Assembly (NCBI GenBank): GCA_964630405.1
Contig: CAZVUC010000017.1
Coordinates: 48,536-112,535 of the forward strand
DNA from: an uncultured Syntrophobacterales bacterium
Lineage (GTDB): Bacteria > Desulfobacterota > Binatia > UBA9968 > JAJDTQ01
DNA length: 64,000 nucleotides
Reading direction: 5' to 3'
The notes below the pieces were generated by a model. The model worked only from the letters and a program-made list of their open reading frames with translations. It did no database searches and had not been told where the DNA came from. Both the position numbers and the translations under genes were made by a program. Shown here piece by piece: positions 42,245 through 43,609 of this stretch. Each line of letters opens with the position of its first letter. Positions within the stretch are counted from its first letter, which is position 1.

Positions 42245-43609
42245 ATGACAAGACCATCGTTGCTGGCGTTGACACTGACTCTCCTTGTTACCGGATGCGG
42301 CGGTGGAGGTACCCCAACAGGAGGTACCTCGACTGGTGGTGGCTCGGCACTGTTACCGGTCGGTCCGTTATCGTTACCGATTCCAAGCGTGACAGGGGCT
42401 GGAGATGGAACCAGCATCAGCGCGAGGACTTCCAACCAGGGGCATGGGATAGACCCTGGAGAGACCTGGGGGAATCACCGTTACTTCCTGAACCCGCACC
42501 CGGAGCCAGGATCTCGAACCATTGCAGGATTGAGGTACGATATTCTCGGTCAATCGGACGGAATCACCTATGGTCAGGCCAAGGCTGGACCTGCCGATAC
42601 TCTTGACGTGGATTTCATCGGAGATCACTGGCTCCTGCTTCCGCACGAGTTGCGAGCGATCCTGGAGCGAGGTGGGAAGGCCTGGACCTACCGGCTGCTC
42701 AGGGACCCTGGCGGTGACGACGAGATCACAGTCTACACCGATTGGGCTAGCGACCATTGCCCTACGGCCAATACCGCTTGTGGAGGTCCCCGCCTCCTGG
42801 CTCTGAAGAAGTCCAGATGGTTCAAGAATGGAGCGCTGGTGACCGACTTGGCAACGTGGTACCGAGGTCGGAGCATCGGAGTTCCGGTGGACAAGGACCA
42901 GGCCTACTTCGCGGCCCACGAAATGGGTCACGTTCTTGGCTTGTCCCATGACGGAAGCTCCCGTGGCAAACCAGTCAGCCCACTATCTCCGTACAGGTTG
43001 ATGGGTAAAGGGTACAACAGTCACGAGATCGTGGTGCCGCACGAGAGCGAGTTGGCTGACTTGGTAGACAAGGGATACACGAGAGCAGGAGATTATCCGG
43101 ATGGTTCACCTGACAATCCCTTCGAGACCTACAGCTATGCAGCTTGGGGTGGGTGGGCCGAGTGGGGAGTGAAGGTGGTCAGGGAGCTTTCCTTTAGCGC
43201 AAGCAGCCCTCCCGTTGACAACCTGCGCTTCGACGCCTTTGTGGAGGGTCCTCGAAGCACGGATCCGTTAGGCGCGGGTGAGTACACGTGGAGAGGTTCA
43301 CTACTCGCCGTAGACACTCTGACTGCTGAACCAGTCCGTGGGCGTGCCACGATCGAGTTGAGCGGTCAGGGAGGCACCGTGAGCTTCGACGACTTGACGA
43401 CCGTCAAGTACATCGAAGGACCTTCCCCTGCCTACTGGCGTGAGTCGTTGTTGGAGTACCAGGTCCGCCTTGACCAGGACAGGTTGAGGTTCACGGATGA
43501 TGGGAACAGCGTGGTGGGAGAGTTTCACGGCCCTAGCCATGAAGAAGCGGCCGGGACCCTCAACGATCAAGTCAACCGGATCGTAGGCGCCTTCGGAGGT
43601 AGGCTTTGA
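42245..43609 (+). CDS. Surface/periplasmic lipoprotein: metzincin-like zinc metalloprotease domain plus TbpB-like C-terminal beta-barrel (paralog 1)
   Basis: Lipobox LTLLVTGC; zinc motif AHEMGHVLGLSHD (HExxHxxGxxH + D) with a Met-turn candidate YRLMGKGY; C-terminus ...NDQVNRIVGAFGGRL resembles the GxFG(A/G)xR ending of TbpB/fHbp-type handle barrels. Confidence 0.65.
   Translation: MTRPSLLALTLTLLVTGCGGGGTPTGGTSTGGGSALLPVGPLSLPIPSVTGAGDGTSISARTSNQGHGIDPGETWGNHRYFLNPHPEPGSRTIAGLRYDILGQSDGITYGQAKAGPADTLDVDFIGDHWLLLPHELRAILERGGKAWTYRLLRDPGGDDEITVYTDWASDHCPTANTACGGPRLLALKKSRWFKNGALVTDLATWYRGRSIGVPVDKDQAYFAAHEMGHVLGLSHDGSSRGKPVSPLSPYRLMGKGYNSHEIVVPHESELADLVDKGYTRAGDYPDGSPDNPFETYSYAAWGGWAEWGVKVVRELSFSASSPPVDNLRFDAFVEGPRSTDPLGAGEYTWRGSLLAVDTLTAEPVRGRATIELSGQGGTVSFDDLTTVKYIEGPSPAYWRESLLEYQVRLDQDRLRFTDDGNSVVGEFHGPSHEEAAGTLNDQVNRIVGAFGGRL

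Follow-up and report, generated by a model that had tools for sequence, protein, structure and literature searches.

The product of the gene at 42245-43609 on the forward strand of the window (the whole 64,000-nucleotide stretch of DNA analyzed here) is probably a zinc endopeptidase with a metzincin fold and a lipid anchor, joined to the membrane by a flexible tether and ending in a handle-plus-barrel lobe of the TbpB/hemophilin type. The gene is part of a large, mobile and still unnamed family, whose members are mostly found in bacteria with genome names that point to marine sponges. As far as we have checked, the coupling of a protease to a TbpB-type lobe defines an undescribed family.

Gene and protein layout

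The open reading frame is intact and specifies 454 amino acids followed by a stop codon. We prefer the start at 42245 over an alternative GTG at 42191, which would yield a longer frame, because of the position of the Shine-Dalgarno sequence (Table 1); the orthologs likewise lend no support to the longer version. The elements picked out in the original prediction, viz., the LVTGC lipobox, the zinc motif, the YRLMGKGY segment and the distinctive C-terminus (...NDQVNRIVGAFGGRL), are all found in the frame where it had placed them. The lipobox occupies residues 14-18 (LLVTG/C being 13-18) and supplies the lipoprotein signal characteristic of TbpB-like cargo. Its cysteine is invariant among 60 homologs, with a family consensus of LAGCGGGG or C-GGGG, and the lipobox rule predicts its lipidation; the only other cysteines are C172 and C179. 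The tether comprises 12 Gly, 5 Thr, 5 Pro and 4 Ser among its residues, and the entire stretch from residue 1 to 54 has a pLDDT below 50 in both structure models. A long Gly-rich tether placed immediately after the lipidated cysteine is likewise seen in TbpB, fHbp and NHBA of Neisseria.

Table 1. Features of the gene, its product and the second family member in the window (residue numbers refer to the 454-aa protein)
Feature	Position	Strand	Details
Shine-Dalgarno sequence GGAGGG	42234..42239	+	6 nt 5' of the ATG at 42245; read directly
Signal peptide, residues 1-17, MTRPSLLALTLTLLVTG	42245..42295	+	n-region made positive by Arg3, hydrophobic core, lipobox L-V-T-G/C
Cys18, predicted to be lipidated	42296..42298	+	residue 1 of the mature protein; invariant column
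Flexible tether, residues 19-54 (36 residues)	42299..42406	+	low pLDDT, composition
Predicted metzincin-fold catalytic domain, residues 55-290	42407..43114	+	
Zinc-binding motif HEMGHVLGLSHD, residues 225-236	42917..42952	+	end of helix 215-230
Met-turn candidate YRLMGKGY, residues 250-257	42992..43015	+	Met253; followed by C-terminal helix 267-275, ESELADLVDKGY
Predicted four-stranded handle/pedestal sheet, residues ~291-360	43115..43324	+	strands 293-301, 306-318, 321-334, 346-357
Predicted eight-stranded TbpB-type barrel, residues ~361-454	43325..43606	+	ends GPSHEEAAG...VGAFGGRL
Distant paralog, 455 aa	55511..56878	-	lipobox VVSAC, HELIHALGVWGH, DSIMG, C-terminus VGAFGGKR

The predicted metzincin-like catalytic domain

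In our structural model, residues 55-290 adopt a metzincin catalytic fold with a twisted sheet, a backing helix and an active-site helix, in support of the N-terminal metzincin domain proposed in the original prediction. The zinc motif, with H225, E226, H229, G232, H235 and D236, matches the extended metzincin pattern HExxHxxGxx(H/D), and Met253 lies 17 residues past D236. Conservation indicates that these motifs are not chance occurrences: H225, E226 and H229 are invariant in 60/60 aligned homologs, at least 90% of these have Met253, and the complete HExGHVLGLxHD plus RLMG motif is retained in 19/19 close orthologs. Met253 further aligns with S-I/L-M-A/S-Y-C in the long-form relatives and with the SIMG segment of the second paralog's family. 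An active enzyme would be expected to conserve the general-base glutamate, as is seen here. The anticipated retention of the third histidine and the Met-turn candidate in orthologs thus holds for the close ones, but the canonical third histidine is absent from most of the wider family, where HExxHxxGxxH occurs in just 1 of 148 representative clusters. In the long-form relatives, a conserved D-Y/F-G-H may provide the third zinc ligand. The loop bearing H235 and Met253 is also the lowest-confidence stretch of the catalytic domain in the model built from 60 sequences, with 10-residue block means of pLDDT 57-81 and a minimum near residues 241-250.

Pfam matches of the single sequence to known peptidases fell below the gathering threshold (Peptidase_M10, 16.6 versus a cut-off of 24 bits; Reprolysin_5, 19.8 versus 27; Reprolysin_4, 17.8 versus 22) and the Peptidase_M10 and Reprolysin matches were confined to the HExxH helix. 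The family profile searched against the PDB recovered metzincins at E ~0.04. More generally, Pfam and NCBIfam scans of the 454-aa protein returned only sub-threshold matches, and hence single-sequence family scans are not decisive by themselves. The HMM searches suggested along with the original prediction therefore gave a divided answer, with no curated model reaching threshold on the protein itself but matches to both halves at the family level, namely to Peptidase_M10 in 20/60 members and to TbpB_B_D in 38/60.

The C-terminal lobe

The C-terminus had been likened to the barrels of TbpB-type lipoproteins, a proposal that is supported by structure prediction, Foldseek searches and the comparison of the family profile with the PDB. 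The 60-sequence model (pLDDT 79.9, pTM 0.78), which replaced an earlier 26-sequence version with a poor catalytic domain (pLDDT 40-65), renders the C-terminal sheet and barrel with confidence, and in it the predicted eight-stranded barrel is of the TbpBBD/lipoprotein C type and is preceded by a handle/pedestal sheet. The top 50 Foldseek matches are all SLP-type proteins, and every one of the solved structures nearest to the lobe is of a surface or secreted protein of the Slam/T11SS type. TbpB, NHBA and LbpB are the best PDB matches of the family profile, at E-values of 1e-4 to 1e-3 (TbpB 1e-4, NHBA 4.5e-4). Structural alignments with hemophilin, fHbp, the TbpB C-lobe and HpuA extend over 155-171 residues and reach past the barrel; the barrel is thus present as foreseen, but the module is the whole handle-plus-barrel lobe of ~165 residues rather than a C-terminal barrel of ~130.

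A distant paralog in the same window

The original prediction had counted this gene as the first of two paralogs in the window. The second is real but distant, being a member of a distinct and larger subfamily with an HExxHxxGxxxH motif. The two proteins share a lipobox, an HExxH domain, a putative Met-turn, a handle and a barrel in the same order. However, the BLASTP alignment is limited to the final ~110 residues (28% identity), leaving the N-terminal ~250 residues unalignable by this method, and the zinc motif of the second subfamily is one residue longer. Profile-profile comparison of both families gives a 99.8% probability for an alignment that begins at the Met-turn and runs to the C-terminus. 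In 27 homologs of the second protein, H237, E238, H241, G244, H248, S257 and M259 are invariant, and a word-indexed search recovered 254 homologs of it at E<=1e-3, as against 35 for the family of 42245-43609. An IS1 transposase adjoins the second paralog.

Family, hosts and mobility

The family counts 157 representative clusters at E<=1e-30, rising to 681 at 1e-10 and 1761 at 1e-3, with the two looser tiers probably taking in barrel-only relatives. Full-length homologs show 55-92% identity, and dozens of others fall in the range of 28-35%. Their hosts include Binatia, Alphaproteobacteria, Nitrospirales, Thermodesulfobacteriota, Chloroflexota (by bin labels), Entotheonella and Poriferihabitaceae. 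Among the complete genomes with family members are OZ244869, OZ241976 and OZ244621 (Binatia), OZ241988 (Nitrospirales) and OZ220712 (Thermodesulfobacteriota). Many of these genomes bear sponge-type bin names, and it is from the genome names that the link to sponges is judged, under a naming scheme tied to sponges in the literature (APA for Aplysina aerophoba, SB06xx for Ircinia ramosa). The original prediction had not recognized the combination as a described family, and this holds, as far as checked, on several counts: NCBI labels the members generically as "hypothetical protein" or "transferrin-binding protein-like solute binding protein"; the Pfam matches remain below threshold; published surveys of Slam/T11SS cargo record some ten architectures, with no protease effector among them; and literature searches for a TbpB-like lobe with a metzincin, or for transferrin-binding protein-like proteins with sponges, found nothing.

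The gene behaves like a unit that is exchanged horizontally by itself. Its codon usage is atypical, with a GC3 of 0.64 against ~0.9 in neighboring genes. The window is collinear with the binatian OZ244869, yet the ortholog there is inserted at another intergenic site, and no remnant is seen at the matching window position, which led us to reject synteny of the two genes; the ortholog shows 70% DNA identity, whereas the flanks mostly show 80-92%. The copies in RHO3_bin_65, which are 91-93% identical, have the reading frame alone in common, and several copies of the family adjoin transposases or toxin-antitoxin genes. The gene ends were checked for target-site duplications and for an attC-like element of integrons, and no insertion scar was recognized. 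A degenerate version of a common post-stop hairpin and, upstream, a 10-bp tandem duplication are all that these ends hold, so that no insertion mechanism can be assigned.

The 38 related loci and the window yielded no conserved partner (Slam, TonB-dependent receptor, inhibitor or chaperone), and no neighbor family is common to more than 5 of the 39 loci. PF04575 (DUF560/Slam) was detected neither in ten Pfam-scanned ORFs of the window, the remaining ones being inspected by eye, nor among the previously annotated genes up to 10 kb away in the loci of three relatives (L039, L041 and L042); in one of these, L042, a TonB-dependent receptor lies 2.3 kb upstream.

Relationship to known systems

The closest parallels are with the surface lipoproteins of the Slam/T11SS systems. 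TbpB, LbpB, fHbp, NHBA, HpuA, hemophilin/HphA and PmSLP share with our protein the N-terminal lipobox and flexible tether, and the signature G-x-F-Y/H-G-P-x-x-E-E-x-A-G ... F-G-G/A-x-R is also common to both. Their modular logic, in which the N-terminal effector varies and the C-terminal barrel is conserved (PMC12282271), is matched by the order of domains seen here. Unlike these cargo proteins, whose effectors are binding, disordered or helical-repeat regions, the present one has an enzyme-like metzincin domain; its gene lacks an adjacent Slam, TonB-dependent receptor or conserved neighbor in the loci examined; and TbpB_B_D remains sub-threshold on the 454-aa protein (13.4 versus 26 bits). 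Further, all reports of Slam/T11SS so far concern Proteobacteria (PMC5449769, PMC12282271), whereas the hosts of the protease family include non-proteobacterial phyla.

With the M10 matrixins, such as MMP-12, MMP-2 and karilysin, the protein has in common the HExxHxxGxxH motif and a candidate Met-turn, and also the succession of a catalytic domain and a separate β-rich C-terminal domain. In MMPs the latter is a hemopexin exosite and in karilysin a T9SS sorting domain. Several further motifs of the family (GITYG..., ...AW.YRL and a helix with D..GY past the Met-turn) we take to be MMP-like. In contrast to these proteases, the 454-aa protein is not a curated M10 member, has no recognizable pro-peptide or cysteine switch, is predicted to be lipid-anchored and has a TbpB-type lobe as its C-terminal domain. 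The S-x-M-x-Y Met-turn of the long-form relatives resembles that of the serralysins (M10B) and astacins (M12A), and in serralysins, too, the catalytic domain is fused to a C-terminal β domain, which serves secretion. However, the 454-aa protein differs from this group in lacking an RTX β-roll and a T1SS signal, in having RLMGKGY in place of SxMxY and in its lipoprotein signal.

Proposed function and alternative interpretations

We propose that the protein would be exported by Sec, lipidated at Cys18 and then transported to the outer membrane. H225, H229 and H235 would hold the zinc, with E226 acting as the general base and Met253 packing beneath the metal site. The C-terminal lobe may act as in the TbpB-type proteins, as a determinant of export and surface display, as a site that binds protein targets for the protease, or as both. 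Displayed on the surface and proteolytically active, as we infer, the protein would likely act outside the cell to degrade proteins of the host (sponge matrix) or of the environment, as a source of nutrients or as a means of interacting with the host. The role of the barrel in export is uncertain, because Slam/T11SS is confined to Proteobacteria as far as described, while the host here is Binatia-type and relatives occur in Chloroflexota-labeled bins.

These same observations suggest a different placement, in which the protein is a lipoprotein protease facing the periplasm, or anchored to the membrane in single-membrane hosts, with a lobe that merely binds ligands or substrates, no Slam/T11SS export, and targets that are envelope or imported proteins. 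It would account for the lack of a Slam/DUF560 gene in the scanned window ORFs or beside the relatives, for the absence of a conserved partner and for the occurrence of the family in Binatia, Nitrospirales, Thermodesulfobacteriota and Chloroflexota-labeled bins. Nevertheless, we regard it as rather unlikely: the solved lobe-bearing proteins among the top matches are all surface-exposed or secreted, the Gly-rich tether after Cys18 resembles that of the Neisseria surface lipoproteins, and the absence of Slam pertains to the examined loci alone.

It is less probable still that the protein is a binder and not an enzyme, with the metzincin-like domain reduced to a degenerate, non-catalytic scaffold (e.g., for metal or protein capture, as in other T11SS cargo) in which HExxH binds metal alone. 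All characterized proteins with this C-terminal lobe are indeed binders, and the lack of a third histidine at the canonical position in most members is in line with such a loss; but the complete motif with its catalytic glutamate and Met-turn candidate throughout the clade, the invariance of H, E and H across the aligned homologs, the invariant H, E, H, G, H and S-x-M of the second paralog's family and the conservation of the general base all fit an active enzyme better. That the motifs arose by chance in a spurious or decaying frame might be suspected from the low GC3 and the lack of a curated family at threshold. This explanation has a negligible probability and is refuted by the full-length homologs, their conservation, the confidently predicted fold and the strong structural matches, as also by the intact frame with its ribosome-binding site.

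Implications

The lobe has so far been known from binders that function in iron or haem capture, in complement evasion and as adhesins, and in Neisseria and related bacteria the proteins bearing it are major antigens for vaccines. Its union with a probable protease in a large family would introduce effectors of a catalytic class, would take the module well past animal pathogens and Proteobacteria, and makes it testable whether the barrel serves for export, for targeting or for both. Hundreds of annotations as "hypothetical" or "transferrin-binding protein-like solute binding" proteins could also be corrected.

It is possible, though on balance doubtful, that the TbpB-type lobe is a portable module that carries enzymes to the surface, and that its protease versions have spread horizontally as single-gene units over at least six phyla in sponge communities, including lineages without a described Slam/T11SS. 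Were this so, there would be either an unrecognized translocon for the barrel outside Proteobacteria or a Slam-independent role for it, for instance as a site for targeting host proteins, and the family would be a common host-interaction factor of sponge symbionts. For sponge symbiosis, this mobile, multi-copy and cross-phylum family is a candidate for the processing of host matrix and proteins by symbionts of unrelated phyla.

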